Shown here piece by piece: positions 2,983-51,355 of a DNA stretch of 64,000 nucleotides. Made by a program: the position numbers and the translations under genes. The notes beneath the pieces are model-generated. The model was not told the DNA's origin and ran no database searches. It worked only from the letters and a program-made list of their open reading frames with translations. Numbering within the stretch: position 1 is the stretch's first letter; every line of letters begins with the position of its first letter. The DNA comes from Escherichia coli (GTDB lineage Bacteria; Pseudomonadota; Gammaproteobacteria; Enterobacterales; Enterobacteriaceae): NCBI RefSeq assembly GCF_030013205.1, contig NZ_CP122648.1, one strand, 5' to 3'.

Positions 2983-3014
2983 AAAAAAAACCCGCTGATT
3001 AAGCGGGTTTTGAA
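2983..3014. terminator. bidirectional intrinsic terminator between convergent crcB and cspE
   Basis: aaaaaaaacccgctgattaagcgggttttg hairpin with A-run and T-run flanks. Confidence 0.6.
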
Positions 3015-3030
3015 TTCTTGCTGACGTATC

Positions 3031-3240
3031 TTACAGAGCGATTACGTTTGCAGCAGAAGGGCCTTTGGCACCGTTAGTGATTTCGAACTCTACGCGCTGA
3101 CCTTCAGCAAGAGTTTTAAAACCATTAGTCTGGATTGCAGAGAAGTGTACAAACACGTCTTTGCTGCCGTCTTCCGGAGTAATGAAACCGAATCCTTTGG
3201 ACTCATTAAACCACTTAACGTTACCTTTAATCTTAGACAT
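3031..3240 (-). CDS. cspE: cold-shock-domain protein CspE
   Basis: 69 aa from internal ATG ([20 protein letters not shown]...); the track ORF is N-terminally extended. Confidence 0.95.
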
Positions 3241-3414
3241 CAAAATTACCTTTACATGAAAAATAGACACAAATGCTGTGTCGGTTACCAGTACACCAAT
3301 TGTGGTACGCTTTGTCCAGTGCAACTTTACTAAAAAGTGATAAAAGTCGCGTTATTTTTGATGTTAATTATTTTACCCATTGATTTTAAAGAGTTTACTA
3401 AAATTTCATTTGTC

Positions 3415-16335: not shown

Positions 16336-16564
16336 TCCTCTGATTTACAAAACACGCTAATTCGTCTTCCATAAACCATGACGATTAAGATTTATACATA
16401 ATGCGCTACATTGAGGAATTCCCTGAATGTGACGCAAATCACTTCAAAGAGTGAGCAACAGTCAGTATCATCATGTGAGTTAAACCCTCGCCGCCTGACG
16501 GTGAGGGTTTTCTTTTGGGTATGTTTATCTGCGACACTCGCAGTACCGACGACATGGAGTAAAA

Positions 16565-17814: not shown

Positions 17815-18525
17815 GCCATAATAAATATCCTCCGGCATAGCCGGAGGTTTTTCAAATGCGCCTATAAGGCTCTCTTACCAGCCGCGCCCTAACAGGCGCA
17901 CACGATCTGACATTTGCATCCAACTTCGTTACTTACGGCCCGTAAACGGGCTGCCCGGATAGGGAATCGATAACTGCTCTCCCATTTTATCCTCTTCAAG
18001 CTGGTGCTTTATGTAATCCTGTATCTTCGCCGTGTTCTTACCCACTGTATCGACGTAGTACCCTCTGCACCAGAACTCCCTGTTCCTGTATTTGAATTTC
18101 AAATCACCAAACTGCTCGTAAAGCATCAGACTGCTTTTCCCTTTCAGATATCCCATAAACCCGGATACGCTCATTTTGGGCGGGATCTCCACAAGCATAT
18201 GGATATGATCTGCACAGCATTCAGCTTCCAGAATCCGTACGCTTTTCCACTCACACAGCTTTCTCAAAATACTGCCTATTGCTCTACGCTTCTCTCTGTA
18301 GAACACCTGTCTTCGGTATTTTGGCGCAAAAACTATGTGATATTTACAGTTCCATCGGGTGTGCGCTAAGCTCTTTTCGTTCCCCATTGGGACCCCCTTT
18401 TGATTTCTTGTTTGACACTTGCAGTTGCCAGACCGCAAGGTGTTTTAACAAATCAAAAGGGGTTTTAATAACTGGCTCAAAGCTGAAAGCTTTCCGGAAC
18501 CCCCAGCCTAGCTGGGGGTTTTCTG
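17815..18525 (-). mobile_element. IS200-like insertion sequence (IS200/IS605 family); boundaries approximate
   Basis: about 710 bp of extra DNA between the uspG and ahpF terminators; it encodes a 152-aa Y1 (HUH) transposase and has the IS200 left-end hairpin (aacccccagcctagctgggggtt) plus an RBS-proximal structured leader. Confidence 0.75.
17929..18387 (-). CDS. tnpA: IS200 transposase TnpA (Y1 HUH transposase)
   Basis: 152 aa from internal ATG (MGNEKSLAHTRWNCKYHIVFAPKYRR... with the HxH motif in ADHIHML); near-identical to Salmonella IS200 TnpA from memory. Confidence 0.93.
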   Translation of the reverse strand: MGNEKSLAHTRWNCKYHIVFAPKYRRQVFYREKRRAIGSILRKLCEWKSVRILEAECCADHIHMLVEIPPKMSVSGFMGYLKGKSSLMLYEQFGDLKFKYRNREFWCRGYYVDTVGKNTAKIQDYIKHQLEEDKMGEQLSIPYPGSPFTGRK

Positions 18526-20890: not shown

Positions 20891-21261
20891 CTATACTTCC
20901 TCCGTGTTTTCGATGAGATGTAAGGTAACCAATTTTTGCCGATTCGGCTAATGCGTTTCCATTATCAAATCGATAAGTTTTACCTTACAACCTTCGTAAG
21001 ACAACTTTGTGAACTTTGCACCGCCAGCGGCGATAAAAAGTAAAATGGCCCCCTTTCCAGGTGACCGTGTAATCTGAACTACCCTTTGGTATCTTCAGCG
21101 CCTGCCTGCAGGCTGAGGTGTTGCCCTTACAAATGCAACAACGACATGGATTACAACACCCTCATAAACAAAGGGCAATCACCTGATCTAAGCTCTTACC
21201 TATGGCAGTGATAGGTTATGCCTTTTACCCGACTTTTGCACTGACTGAAAAGGACAAATTA

Positions 21262-46945: not shown

Positions 46946-47111
46946 CATTTGCAATAGCGTAATGGCGCGCCGTGGGAAGCGCGGACATTAATTAACCAAC
47001 TGCACTACGTGTCTTTCAGGATCAAAGGTTTTCGCGGTAGCGGGATGCGTCGTGTTGATGACGACCATGCCCGACAGTTGCAATTCGTGGCAAAAATGCA
47101 GGAATAAAACA

Positions 47112-49352
47112 ATGAACAAGAAGATTCATTCCCTGGCCTTGTTGGTCAATCTGGGGATTTATGGGGTAGCACAGGCACAAGAGCCAACCGATACTCCTGT
47201 TTCACATGACGATACCATTGTCGTTACCGCCGCCGAGCAGAACTTGCAAGCGCCTGGCGTTTCGACCATCACCGCAGATGAAATCCGCAAAAACCCCGTT
47301 GCCCGCGATGTGTCGGAGATCATCCGTACCATGCCAGGCGTTAACCTGACCGGTAACTCCACCAGTGGTCAGCGTGGGAATAACCGACAGATTGATATTC
47401 GCGGTATGGGTCCGGAAAACACGCTGATTTTGATTGACGGCAAGCCGGTAAGCAGCCGTAACTCGGTGCGCCAGGGCTGGCGTGGCGAGCGCGATACCCG
47501 TGGTGATACCTCCTGGGTGCCACCTGAAATGATTGAACGTATTGAAGTTCTGCGTGGTCCGGCAGCGGCGCGTTATGGCAACGGCGCGGCGGGCGGCGTG
47601 GTTAACATCATCACCAAAAAAGGCAGCGGCGAGTGGCACGGCTCCTGGGACGCATATTTCAATGCGCCAGAACATAAAGAGGAAGGTGCCACCAAACGCA
47701 CTAACTTTAGCCTCACCGGTCCGCTGGGCGACGAATTCAGCTTCCGCTTGTATGGCAACCTCGACAAAACTCAGGCTGACGCGTGGGATATCAACCAGGG
47801 CCATCAGTCCGCGCGTGCCGGAACGTATGCCACGACGTTACCAGCCGGGCGCGAAGGGGTAATTAACAAAGATATTAATGGCGTGGTGCGCTGGGACTTC
47901 GCGCCTCTGCAATCACTCGAACTGGAAGCGGGCTACAGCCGCCAGGGTAACCTGTATGCGGGCGATACCCAGAACACCAACTCTGACTCCTATACCCGCT
48001 CGAAATATGGCGATGAAACCAACCGTCTGTATCGCCAGAACTACTCGCTGACATGGAACGGCGGCTGGGATAACGGCGTGACCACCAGCAACTGGGTGCA
48101 GTACGAACACACCCGTAACTCGCGTATTCCGGAAGGTCTGGCGGGCGGTACCGAAGGGAAATTTAACGAAAAAGCGACACAGGATTTCGTCGATATCGAT
48201 CTCGATGATGTGATGCTGCACAGCGAAGTTAACCTGCCGATTGATTTCCTCGTTAACCAGACGCTGACGCTGGGTACGGAGTGGAATCAGCAACGGATGA
48301 AGGACTTGAGTTCCAATACCCAGGCGCTGACCGGGACGAATACCGGCGGTGCTATTGATGGTGTGAGTGCCACCGACCGTAGCCCGTATTCAAAAGCAGA
48401 AATTTTCTCGCTGTTTGCCGAAAACAACATGGAGCTGACTGACAGCACCATCGTAACGCCGGGGCTGCGTTTCGATCATCACAGCATTGTTGGCAATAAC
48501 TGGAGTCCGGCGCTGAACATCTCGCAAGGTTTAGGCGATGACTTCACTCTGAAAATGGGCATTGCCCGTGCTTATAAAGCGCCGAGTCTGTACCAGACTA
48601 ACCCGAACTACATTCTCTACAGTAAAGGTCAGGGCTGCTATGCCAGCGCGGGCGGCTGCTATCTGCAAGGTAATGATGACCTGAAAGCGGAAACCAGCAT
48701 CAACAAAGAGATTGGTCTGGAGTTCAAACGCGACGGCTGGCTGGCGGGCGTCACCTGGTTCCGTAACGATTATCGCAATAAGATTGAAGCGGGCTATGTG
48801 GCTGTAGGGCAAAACGCAGTCGGCACCGATCTCTATCAGTGGGATAACGTACCGAAAGCGGTGGTTGAAGGTCTGGAAGGATCGTTAAACGTACCGGTTA
48901 GCGAAACGGTGATGTGGACCAATAACATCACTTATATGCTGAAGAGTGAAAACAAAACCACGGGCGACCGTTTGTCGATCATCCCGGAGTATACGTTGAA
49001 CTCAACGCTGAGCTGGCAGGCACGGGAAGATTTGTCGATGCAAACAACCTTCACCTGGTACGGCAAGCAGCAGCCGAAGAAGTACAACTATAAAGGTCAG
49101 CCAGCGGTTGGACCGGAAACCAAAGAAATCAGCCCGTACAGCATTGTTGGCCTGAGCGCGACCTGGGATGTGACGAAGAATGTCAGTCTGACCGGCGGCG
49201 TGGACAACCTGTTCGACAAACGTTTGTGGCGTGCAGGTAATGCCCAGACCACGGGCGATCTGGCAGGAGCCAACTATATCGCCGGTGCCGGGGCGTATAC
49301 CTATAACGAGCCGGGACGTACGTGGTATATGAGCATTAATACTCACTTTTGA
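47112..49352 (+). CDS. fepA: TonB-dependent ferric-enterobactin outer-membrane receptor
   Basis: 746 aa from internal ATG (MNKKIHSLALLVNLGIYGVAQA...); terminal F of the beta-barrel. Confidence 0.96.
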   Translation: MNKKIHSLALLVNLGIYGVAQAQEPTDTPVSHDDTIVVTAAEQNLQAPGVSTITADEIRKNPVARDVSEIIRTMPGVNLTGNSTSGQRGNNRQIDIRGMGPENTLILIDGKPVSSRNSVRQGWRGERDTRGDTSWVPPEMIERIEVLRGPAAARYGNGAAGGVVNIITKKGSGEWHGSWDAYFNAPEHKEEGATKRTNFSLTGPLGDEFSFRLYGNLDKTQADAWDINQGHQSARAGTYATTLPAGREGVINKDINGVVRWDFAPLQSLELEAGYSRQGNLYAGDTQNTNSDSYTRSKYGDETNRLYRQNYSLTWNGGWDNGVTTSNWVQYEHTRNSRIPEGLAGGTEGKFNEKATQDFVDIDLDDVMLHSEVNLPIDFLVNQTLTLGTEWNQQRMKDLSSNTQALTGTNTGGAIDGVSATDRSPYSKAEIFSLFAENNMELTDSTIVTPGLRFDHHSIVGNNWSPALNISQGLGDDFTLKMGIARAYKAPSLYQTNPNYILYSKGQGCYASAGGCYLQGNDDLKAETSINKEIGLEFKRDGWLAGVTWFRNDYRNKIEAGYVAVGQNAVGTDLYQWDNVPKAVVEGLEGSLNVPVSETVMWTNNITYMLKSENKTTGDRLSIIPEYTLNSTLSWQAREDLSMQTTFTWYGKQQPKKYNYKGQPAVGPETKEISPYSIVGLSATWDVTKNVSLTGGVDNLFDKRLWRAGNAQTTGDLAGANYIAGAGAYTYNEPGRTWYMSINTHF

Positions 49353-49391
49353 TGCTAACGTCAGATTGTTGACAAAGTGCGCGTAGTTCAT

Positions 49392-49489
49392 GCCGGATGC
49401 GGCGTGAACGCCTTATCCGGCCTACAAAAATCTTGCCAATTCAATATATTGCAGGACCACGTAGGCCTGATAAGCGTAGCGCATCAGGC
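49392..49489. repeat. REP (palindromic unit) elements, BIME-like pair
   Basis: gccggatgcggcgtgaacgccttatccggcctac and the inverted gtaggcctgataagcgtagcgcatcaggc between fepA and entD. Confidence 0.8.
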
Positions 49490-49526
49490 AGTTTTGCGTT
49501 TGTCATCAGTCTCTAATATGGTCGAC

Positions 49527-50147
49527 ATGAAAACTACGCATACCGCCCTCCCCTTTGCCGGACATACGCTGCATTTTGTTAAGTTCGATCCGGCGAGTTT
49601 TTGTGAGCAGGATTTACTCTGGCTGCCACACTACGCGCAACTGCAACACGCTGGACGTAAACGTAAAACAGAGCATTTAGCCGGACGGATCGCTGCAGTT
49701 TATGCGCTGCGGGAATATGGCTATAAATGTGTGCCCGCAATCGGCGAGCTACGCCAACCTGTGTGGCCTGCGGGGGTATACGGCAGCATTAGTCACTGTG
49801 GGACTACGGCATTAGCCGTGGTATCTCGTCAACCAATTGGCATTGATATCGAAGAGATTTTCTCTGTACAAACCGCAAGAGAATTGACAAACAACATTAT
49901 TACACCAGCAGAACACGAGCGACTCGCAGAATGCGGTTTAACCTTTTCTCTGGCGCTGACACTGGCATTTTCCGCCAAAGAGAGCGCATTTAAGGCATCG
50001 GAGAGACAAACTGATGCAGGATTTCTGGATTATCAGATAATTAGCTTGAATAAACAGCAGATCATCATTCGACTAGAGGATGAGCAGTTTGCTGTGCACT
50101 GGCAGATAAAAGAAAAGATAGTCATAACGCTGTGCCAACACGATTAA
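49527..50147 (+). CDS. entD: enterobactin synthase phosphopantetheinyl transferase
   Basis: 206 aa from internal ATG (MKTTHTALPFAGHTL...); matches EntD. Confidence 0.93.
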   Translation: MKTTHTALPFAGHTLHFVKFDPASFCEQDLLWLPHYAQLQHAGRKRKTEHLAGRIAAVYALREYGYKCVPAIGELRQPVWPAGVYGSISHCGTTALAVVSRQPIGIDIEEIFSVQTARELTNNIITPAEHERLAECGLTFSLALTLAFSAKESAFKASERQTDAGFLDYQIISLNKQQIIIRLEDEQFAVHWQIKEKIVITLCQHD

Positions 50148-50268
50148 TTGACAATACCCGGAGCGATTCGCCCGCAGCCAATGCTGACTGCGGGCGAAAG
50201 TGTAAAGCAGGTGCCTTACTACTCTGACCTGACAACCGGATATGCGGGGATTACTCCCCGCACAACGG

Positions 50269-50421
50269 CTACTTCTTCGGTTCGTAAGCGAGAACAGCCT
50301 TAAACTCAATATTACGTTCCTTCACCGTAAACTCACACAGCGAGTCTCCGACCAGAAGCGTAAATCCCAGCACCGTTAAACACAGCACTATGACTGCCAC
50401 AAGGGCATATTTCGTCAGCAT
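50269..50421 (-). CDS. hokE: Hok-family membrane toxin (HokE-like), copy 1
   Basis: 50 aa [50 protein letters not shown]. Confidence 0.85.
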
Positions 50422-50566
50422 GTTTATATTGCCTCCATGCGAAGAAGGGACTACCATCCGAGTTGTTGAGGTTCGGAGTGGCAGCCCCAGGATTGATAGA
50501 AATATCTCCTGGGGCTTCATCTTTCCAGACCTCAGAGTTAACCTGAAACCGGAAAGCTTCAGGCAC
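50333..50566 (-). CDS. mok-like overlapping reading frame (modulator of hok translation), copy 1
   Basis: 77-codon ORF in a different frame, starting upstream of hok and ending inside it ([16 protein letters not shown]...). Confidence 0.5.
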
Positions 50567-50630
50567 CCGCTGTTATCTTACCCTTCCTTAGCAAAATAAC
50601 TGTTTATTTATACAGCAAGTCCTGTTTCGG
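50560..50630 (+). ncRNA. predicted Sok-like antisense RNA, copy 1 (position inferred)
   Basis: inferred only from hok/sok architecture (antisense to the mok initiation region / hok leader); hairpin agtcctgtttcggact present; no promoter confirmed. Confidence 0.3.
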
Positions 50631-50670
50631 ACTTCTGTTGGCAACACTCGTTATTGCTCGTAAAACGAAA

Positions 50671-51131
50671 TCGCCCGCAGCCATCACTGACCACGGGCGA
50701 AAGTGTAAAGCAGGTGCCTTACCACCCTGACCTGACAACCGGATATGCGGGGATTACTCCCCGCACAACGGCTACTTCTTCGGTTCGTAAGCGAGAACAG
50801 CCTTAAACTCAATATTACGTTCCTTCACCGTAAACTCACACAGCGAGTCTCCGACTAGAAGCGTAAATCCCAGTACCGTCAAACACAGCACTATGACTGC
50901 CACAAGGGCATATTTCGTCAGCATGTTTATATTGCCTCCATGCGAAGAAGGGACTACCATCCAAATTGTCTGGTTTGGAGTGGCAGCCCCAGGGTTGATA
51001 GAAATATCTCCTGGGGCTTCATCTTTCCAGACCTCAGAGTTAACCTGAAACCGGAAAGCTTCAGGCACCCGCCGTTATCTTACCCTTCTTCAGCAAAATA
51101 GCTGTTTATTTATACAGTGAGTCCTGTTTCG
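50671..51131 (-). other. hok/sok-type type I toxin-antitoxin locus, copy 2 (ybdK-proximal)
   Basis: second unit of the tandem repeat; hok coding sequence differs from copy 1 by 3 synonymous substitutions; flanks carry indels. Confidence 0.7.
50772..50924 (-). CDS. hokE: Hok-family membrane toxin (HokE-like), copy 2
   Basis: 50 aa, protein identical to copy 1; the upstream mok-like frame is fused in-frame here (98-codon ORF 50772..51068). Confidence 0.85.
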
Positions 51132-51132
51132 G
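51062..51132 (+). ncRNA. predicted Sok-like antisense RNA, copy 2 (position inferred)
   Basis: inferred from architecture; extended hairpin agtgagtcctgtttcggacttctcact. Confidence 0.3.
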
Positions 51133-51355
51133 ACTTCTCACTCCTCATTTGATCAACTGAAGCTGAACCCGTTTTTTTCTGCATGCCTCAATCGTCAAAA
51201 TTCTTCGCCACCAGTCCGCACTGCCATAACTTGTCATATTGCAAAATGTAGCCAATTTGCTTCAGTCACCATCATCAAAAAAAGAAACATTCCAGAACTT
51301 CCGCATCTCGCCCAGTCGCTCCCACTTCTATACTGAATAGAAAACGCCAACATAA

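Follow-up and report, generated by a model that had tools for sequence, protein, structure and literature searches.

What is the role of the repeated DNA that separates fepA from entD in Escherichia coli, and does it consist of two palindromes placed between two genes or of a larger element able to act on their expression? The question was addressed in one window, that is, the whole stretch of 64,000 nucleotides of E. coli DNA that was analysed and to which the positions given below refer. The annotation was taken from the RefSeq record NZ_CP028192.1 of strain CFSAN018748, which is 100% identical and whose locus is related to the window by an offset of 46199. Positions 49353-49526 are exactly the fepA-entD spacer of 174 bp, bounded by the stop codon of fepA at 49350-49352 and by the ATG of entD (49527). 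The K-12 spacer has the same length of 174 bp and its alignment with the window is free of indels. The region 49200-49700 displays 100% identity with CFSAN018748 and 95-99% identity with most of the 5,426 complete E. coli genomes.

The preliminary description of this spacer had reported two palindromic units, inverted with respect to each other and interpreted as REP sequences filling the space between both genes. The two units were recovered exactly: GCCGGATGCGGCGTGAACGCCTTATCCGGCCTAC is found at 49392-49425 on the + strand with 0 mismatches, where 0 occurrences are expected from 100 shuffles, and GTAGGCCTGATAAGCGTAGCGCATCAGGC at 49461-49489, matched as its reverse complement (+ strand GTAGGCC...), with 0 mismatches and none expected. 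They are indeed inverted relative to each other (inverted-repeat pair I1) and, as RNA, are predicted to fold into imperfect hairpins of -21.3 kcal/mol (z -5.05) for the first, y-type unit and -12.9 kcal/mol (z -3.2) for the second, z1-type unit. Their comparison with the REP consensus families, proposed in that description as a check, highlighted GTAG/CTAC feet, one y and one z1 unit, and a partial match of the y unit to the Rfam naRNA4 (REP325) family. The conserved GTAG/CTAC foot, the imperfect palindromes, the high repetition and the extragenic position between two coding sequences are those of REPs, which measure 30-40 nt, or less in the z1 type. The assertion that the units fill the spacer is wrong for the two units alone, which cover 63 of the 174 bases, and right for the complete repeat to which they belong, which covers about 153 of the 174. 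The components of the locus are as follows.

47112-49352, + strand: fepA coding sequence, ferric enterobactin outer-membrane receptor, upstream gene (RefSeq annotation).
49353-49360, + strand: eight unique bases (tgctaacg) from the fepA stop codon to the repeat; paralogue homology is lost left of about 49361.
49361-49391, + strand: left flank of the repeat, TCAGATTGTTGACAAAGTGCGCgTaGTTCAT, with the left terminal inverted repeat at 49363-49376; conserved in seven paralogues.
49392-49425, + strand: y-type REP of 34 nt, CTAC end toward the linker; exact match, RNA hairpin.
49426-49460, + strand: L linker of 35 bp; Rfam match, conserved in seven paralogues.
49439-49451, + strand: putative IHF-consensus-like site ATTCAATATATTG, one mismatch to WATCAANNNNTTR; found by pattern scan.
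49461-49489, + strand: z1-type short REP of 29 nt, GTAG end toward the linker, inverted relative to y; exact match.
49490-49513, + strand: right flank of the repeat, AGTTTTGCGTTTGTCATCAGTCTC, with the right terminal inverted repeat at 49499-49512; conserved in the paralogues.
49514-49526, + strand: 13 unique bases leading up to the entD start and including a weak ribosome-binding region; paralogue homology stops at about 49513.
49527-50147, + strand: entD coding sequence, phosphopantetheinyl transferase for enterobactin synthesis, downstream gene (annotations; the translation begins MKTTHTALPF).

Other starts are available for both genes. The list of open reading frames gives fepA as 47052-49352, from an upstream GTG. 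The open reading frame 49377-50147, which opens at a GTG (49377) in frame with entD, was rejected as a gene since it begins within the repeat and entD is annotated from 49527; no stop codon interrupts it anywhere along the repeat. From another in-frame ATG, at 49518, an EntD protein would begin with MVDMKTT.

The surroundings of the locus contain further structured elements. Just downstream of entD, hokE/sokE is tandemly duplicated over about 500 bp per copy (50168-51138), the copies being 95-96% identical, with Rfam sok matches at 50413-50568 and 50916-51070 and two hokE genes annotated in the identical strain; at the place of this duplication, K-12 carries IS186. Elsewhere in the window, Rfam families score above their gathering thresholds at 2983-3341 (cspA-type thermoregulator leader), 16411-16519 (rnk leader), 18397-18520 (STnc490 Hfq-binding sRNA) and 21035-21128 (STnc70).

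The genome-wide repeat search, named beforehand as the observation that could overturn the REP assignment, placed the units in a dispersed repeat: a 501-nt query carrying both of them had matches at a median of at least 40 places per genome, and this in 5425 of the 5426 E. coli genomes. In 5345/5426 genomes, a single place accounts for at least 80% of the query. In about 80 of the 5,426 complete genomes, no single place reaches this coverage, which may reflect a deletion of the locus or its interruption, for instance by REP-targeting insertion sequences. Within the 64-kb window, no further REP or linker copy was found and the copy in the spacer is the sole REP.

Three REP types, y, z1 and z2, are distinguished in E. 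coli by Ton-Hoang 2012 (PMC3333891). According to the same source, BIME-1 is made of y and z1 units with a long and well-conserved L linker, a frequent IHF site and a single copy, whereas BIME-2 combines y and z2 units with short linkers in tandem arrays (PMC3333891). The z unit of the spacer is assigned to z1 because it has the short form, as opposed to the longer z2 of BIME-2, and because of this definition of BIME-1; in the sucB-sucC element of K-12, called BIME-2 by Sutormin et al., the z units have the longer z2 form GCCTGATGCGACGCTGACGCGTCTTATCAGGCCTAC. The fepA-entD locus contains an inverted y and z1 pair, a conserved L linker, one unit only and conserved outer flanks. On its sequence, the spacer is thus almost wholly one BIME-1 copy of about 153 bp (49361-49513), and the REP/BIME reading of the preliminary description can be kept in a more precise form, as a complete BIME-1 arranged as flank, y REP, L linker, z1 REP and flank.

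The extent of the element was delimited by means of its paralogues. In a search of a plasmid collection, many records were found to carry fragments of the E. coli chromosome with full-length copies that are 87-93% identical; eight paralogue loci were retrieved and seven of them were aligned, namely ccmH-narP, downstream of ybjO, fbaA-mscS, garK-yhaC, dppA-dppB, downstream of cueO and one unannotated locus. The record that contains the dppA-dppB copy is described as a plasmid fragment of Klebsiella oxytoca, and the presence of the dpp genes suggests that this DNA is chromosomal. The seven full-length paralogues align over about 153 bp, both flanks included (about 31 nt and 24 nt), and the homology runs from TCAGATTGTTGACAAAGTGCGC... 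(about 49361) to ...TTTGTCATCAGTCTC (about 49513). Since they are shared across this alignment, the segments 49363-49376 and 49499-49512 are the terminal inverted repeats that the whole family carries, not something peculiar to this spacer. In the Gilson/Bachellier nomenclature, the left flank would be the 'A' motif of BIME-1 and the right flank its 'B' motif. Taken alone, the left flank (at E<=1) has a median of 5 places per genome, the right flank a median of 6 and the L linker, at a strict threshold, a median of 5; like the 501-nt query, all three are multi-copy in 5425 of the 5426 genomes.

The linker also matches the Rfam family RF02751 (ES036/CssrF) at 49427-49468 on the + strand, with 42.2 bits for a gathering score of 37.6. 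This match, on the same strand as the genes and above the gathering score, raises the question of a free-standing small RNA gene with its own promoter in the linker region. However, the model is 43 nt long and is in effect the repeated L motif followed by GTAGGCCT, L is itself multi-copy, no promoter-like site was found by consensus scan, and the 3' end mapped in vivo (see below) fits a 3'-terminal fragment of fepA. A literature search on ES036 yielded no paper. The RF02751 match should thus be read as a copy of the L motif and not as proof of an independent gene, an alternative that we hold to be extremely unlikely.

By our estimate, a match of the quality of the IHF-like site would arise by chance in 35 bp in about 2-3% of cases. 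Its core bases are invariant in all 8 copies of the element and the cueO paralogue displays the perfect consensus, AATCAATGGATTG. From these letters, we infer that IHF could bind the fepA-entD copy. This would allow a role at the DNA level, in which IHF bends the L linker and the element serves as an architectural or supercoil-insulating site that separates a strongly induced gene from those around it, its effects on RNA being incidental. The invariance of the core among paralogues, the reported binding of IHF to the L linker of BIME-1 (PMC3333891) and the report that one BIME blocks supercoil diffusion are in agreement with such a role. But in relatives devoid of the element and of its IHF site, nothing more than an RNA-type hairpin is kept at this position, and IHF binding is compatible with the role in RNA proposed below and does not exclude it. 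As the main function of the element, the DNA-level role appears quite unlikely.

The history of the spacer was analysed in one genome per bacterial species by a scan with the 299 C-terminal residues of FepA, which gave 80 loci; entD lies downstream of fepA in 74 of them and the spacer could be measured in 71. The same element occupies the spacer, of 173-174 bp, in the five Escherichia representatives out of five (E. albertii, E. whittamii, E. coli and two more species), and it is absent from all the non-Escherichia loci with entD downstream. Across Escherichia orthologues, the element is 94.8-98.7% identical, compared with 86-96% for the first 300 nt of entD, and the y unit is identical at 34 positions out of 34 in six orthologue comparisons. 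For E. albertii, identity is 91% over the final 300 nt of fepA and 86% over the opening 300 nt of entD. This high conservation may result from selection or from concerted evolution among repeat copies. E. albertii also shows a paired change, G49465A and C49489T, which turns a G:C into an A:U pair and keeps the pairing in the local z1 stem; the same change would break one pair of the alternative stem formed between the y and z1 units.

In the other genera, the spacer is occupied differently. Short spacers of 36-68 nt are present in 42 species, of genera including Salmonella, Citrobacter, Klebsiella, Kluyvera, Trabulsiella, Pseudocitrobacter, Yokenella and Siccibacter, and each of them contains one strong GC-rich hairpin of -14 to -33 kcal/mol (median z -4.2). 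These hairpins are of the type CCCTCTCC-loop-GGAGAGGG, the sequence of the stem varying by genus with the pairing kept, and most of them have no U-tract. The eight unique bases that follow fepA in the window, tgctaacg, resemble the beginning of the Salmonella and Citrobacter spacers (tgccaac, tgctggc). Longer spacers of 90-493 bp, found in Enterobacter, Lelliottia, Leclercia, Huaxiibacter, Pseudenterobacter and Buttiauxella, contain a different tandem palindromic repeat, ccctctccctgtgggagagggccggggtgagggcatcaggccgcac, sometimes preceded by a terminator-like hairpin (gcaaaacggcaac...gttgccgttttt); this repeat presumably resembles the boxC family of E. coli. Some Enterobacter loci carry a z1-like REP (93% over 30 nt) downstream of entD and none in the fepA-entD spacer. 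Examples are given below with their positions in the scanned loci (set L010-L084).

L069 3916-3962; L022 3934-3983: hairpins of short-spacer relatives, just after the fepA stop codon.
L034 3916-4109; L039 3916-4207; L042 3916-4408; also L043, L049, L059 and L084: spacers with the Enterobacter-type repeat.
L059 4755-4784; L045 4643-4672; L063 6233-6312: z1-like sequences downstream of entD in Enterobacter.

The fepA-entD spacer appears as a recurrent landing site for small repeats. As 42 of the 42 short-spacer relatives keep one, selection appears to maintain a stable hairpin after fepA; the conserved feature of the locus is this hairpin placed directly after the gene, a slot whose Escherichia-specific occupant is BIME-1. 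BIME-1 would have entered the spacer in the ancestor of Escherichia and replaced the single GC-rich hairpin that the other Enterobacteriaceae have kept. With different repeat families in one hairpin slot, the locus offers a clear-cut case, found in nature, of repeats replacing one another at a functionally constrained site. The same data bear on the proposal that the element is a neutral or selfish passenger of MITE type, maintained by a REP-associated transposase or by gene conversion and devoid of any local function other than that of an ordinary hairpin. Its terminal inverted repeats, its many near-identical copies, a conservation above that of the neighbouring genes, as in concerted evolution, and the independent colonisation of the same spacer by a different repeat family in Enterobacter-like genera are all expected for a passenger, and REPs are substrates of TnpA-REP (PMC3333891). 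The retention of a strong hairpin at the same position in all 42 short-spacer relatives is not, nor is the formation of an RNA 3' end inside the element in vivo, and we consider this proposal unlikely.

How the element could act depends on the way entD is transcribed. No intrinsic terminator was found between 48800 and 50200 by a terminator scan; the sequence that follows the z1 unit, AGTTTTGCG, contains only four T and does not make a hairpin with a U-tract. No sigma-70 consensus promoter was found in the spacer by a consensus scan, which weak promoters would escape, and no Fur box either, the best match being 9/19 compared with 13/19 in the fes-fepA control region. In published work, fepA-entD is handled as one Fur-repressed operon and entD belongs, in the Fur-1 iModulon, to the same expression module as fepA; one paper mentions that entD additionally has its own promoters. 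Since the spacer displays no consensus promoter and no Fur box, yet entD is co-regulated with fepA by Fur, entD expression is most simply explained by read-through. The opposite case, a full transcription terminator that separates two units and leaves entD solely to its own promoter, would account for the presence of a 3' end in the spacer and agrees with the paper that mentions entD promoters. It is contradicted by the failure to find a U-tract terminator, by the Fur co-regulation of entD with fepA though the spacer has no Fur box, and by the conservation across the family of the fepA-then-entD order with a very short spacer, and it is in our opinion very unlikely. With respect to factor-dependent termination, the LB tables of Adams et al. 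call no Rho region at the locus, fepA being barely expressed in this medium (PMC7815308). The DNA that follows the element has more C than G (49486-49615, C/G up to 1.57), which is weakly compatible with a Rho loading site.

Transcript 3'-end mapping, the other check proposed at the outset, is available for K-12, and the published Term-seq data indeed place an end inside the element. In the M63 sheet of Adams et al. 2021 (PMC7815308, supplementary files 1 and 3), a 3' end is reported at MG1655 610126(-), with an average read count of 31,462, the class 'orphan' and a position 47 nt upstream of the entD start. It was called in M63 minimal medium only, one of three growth conditions, and it is the sole end listed between 607736 and 622152 in this sheet (PMC7815308). 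The printed context of this end is ...GTAGGCCTGATAAGCGTAG[C]. As the K-12 and window spacers are aligned without indels, 610126(-) corresponds to 49480 in the window and lies inside the z1 unit.

49480, + strand: equivalent of the K-12 Term-seq 3' end, mapped via the spacer alignment; the data come from K-12, another strain.

An RNA ending at this position therefore contains no intact z1 hairpin. The fold predicted for the RNA truncated at 49480 has an energy of -44.8 kcal/mol (z -5.4); in it, the 3' half of y pairs with the 5' half of z1, the L linker stands at the tip and the end falls 3-6 nt past the last stem. In this model, such a distance would be the geometry typical of 3'-to-5' exonucleases stalled at the structure; Dar and Sorek documented ends of this kind in Rho-dependent transcripts and found a quarter of these transcripts to finish at REPs. 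The location of the end inside z1 points to a protecting structure that is probably not two separate REP hairpins and that, according to the predicted fold, may be one hairpin formed by pairing of the y and z1 units. Alternatively, the 49480-equivalent end may be a processing or pause site.

For the full-length spacer, the predicted fold (-70.5 kcal/mol, z -4.5) is a single long hairpin that the flanks close, and this exact structure has an ensemble frequency of 0.002. A working structure can be drawn from both folds, in which the inter-REP hairpin would be joined, in full-length transcripts, by an outer stem between the flanks that zips the whole spacer into a hairpin of about 150 nt, with its foot at the fepA stop codon and the weak entD ribosome-binding region; we propose it tentatively and regard it as rather doubtful. 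If it were true, ribosomes ending fepA would have to open the foot of the outer stem, and entD translation would be coupled to that of fepA. The same stem could be invoked for an effect on FepA itself, the element lowering its synthesis by stalling terminating ribosomes: this mechanism is described for a class of REPs located within 15 nt of the stop codon, and the predicted fold of the whole spacer closes a stem starting at the fepA stop codon. The y REP, however, starts 39 nt after the stop (from 49352 to 49392), well beyond the 15-nt limit of this class, and the long outer stem is a prediction of ensemble frequency 0.002, which makes ribosome stalling highly improbable.

These results lead to the following proposal. 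Transcription of fepA and entD would proceed together from the Fur-controlled fepA promoter and, once in RNA, the element would fold into a very stable structure. This structure would halt 3'-to-5' exonucleases and probably promote partial factor-dependent termination nearby. A stable fepA-only message, with its 3' end within the element, would accumulate, and a minority of transcripts would read through and supply the small amount of EntD that is needed. The role assigned to the element in the preliminary description, by which the 3' end of fepA may be made more stable and read-through into entD modulated, finds support in the Term-seq end, in the Fur co-regulation and in the upstream-biased expression of REP-separated gene pairs. 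REPs are reported in general to protect 3' ends and to attenuate transcription, and the study of REP325 described both partial Rho-dependent attenuation and protection of the upstream message. Among 146 tandem gene pairs with a REP, the median log upstream/downstream expression ratio was 0.96, compared with -0.09 in controls; in a genome-wide REP study, the variance was large and mRNA half-life was not affected in a uniform manner. At fepA-entD, no experiment in which the element was removed, nor any relevant paper on the REPs of this locus, was found among the papers searched, and we infer that the element causes the 3' end and sets the fepA:entD ratio. An mRNA 3'-end protector combined with a partial attenuator is its most likely role. 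Taken as a whole, the reading of the spacer as a complete BIME-1, acquired in an ancestor of Escherichia, which gives fepA a stable 3' end and entD partial read-through, is one that we hold with good confidence.

The fepA-entD element is a textbook BIME-1, of an already known kind, and nothing in it is new in kind. The roles of REP and BIME sequences in mRNA 3'-end protection and in attenuation have been known since the 1980s, and the first sequencing of entD reportedly already remarked REP sequences in the fepA-entD spacer. What the analysis adds is the full extent of the repeat, its age at the level of the genus together with the ancestral hairpin that it replaced, and the connection of an existing, uncommented Term-seq end to inter-REP pairing. 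The unit to be annotated is thus the full BIME-1 of 153 bp and not two palindromes of 30 nt. As the repeat covers about 153 of the 174 bases, entD is left with only about 13 unique bases upstream of its start.

BIME-1 elements, also called RIP or RIB elements, are the systems closest to the fepA-entD spacer, which shares with them the inverted y and z1 units, the L linker of about 35 bp, an IHF-type site (putative here), the single copy, the extragenic position at the 3' end of a gene and outer flanks common to the other copies; no structural difference was noted. Among these copies, the BIME-1 of dppA-dppB is a full-length element that likewise follows the first gene of an uptake-system operon; it belongs to a separate locus and is 88% identical to the fepA-entD copy. 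The MITEs and the REPIN/RAYT systems are similar by their long imperfect palindrome, their terminal inverted repeats, their non-coding nature, their multiple copies and the fact that REPs are substrates of Y1 transposases, but the fepA-entD element encodes no transposase and no target-site duplication was identified at this locus.

From the functional point of view, the stabiliser and attenuator REP325, between yjdM and yjdN, also lies between a strongly expressed first gene and a weak downstream gene. Systems of this type share with fepA-entD an RNA 3' end at the element and an expected expression bias in favour of the upstream gene. These models are BIME-2 or atypical multi-REP arrays, whereas the fepA-entD element is a single BIME-1 whose effect is predicted. 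The malE-malF and hisJ-hisQ elements are further stabilisers or attenuators of REP/BIME type located inside operons. Finally, the GC-rich hairpin found after fepA in Salmonella, Citrobacter, Klebsiella, Kluyvera and other genera has a single stem of 9-15 bp, of the CCCTCTCC/GGAGAGGG type, in a spacer of 36-68 nt. It contains neither REP, L linker nor IHF site and is not homologous to the Escherichia element, but it occupies the same position and is, like it, stable and usually devoid of a U-tract.
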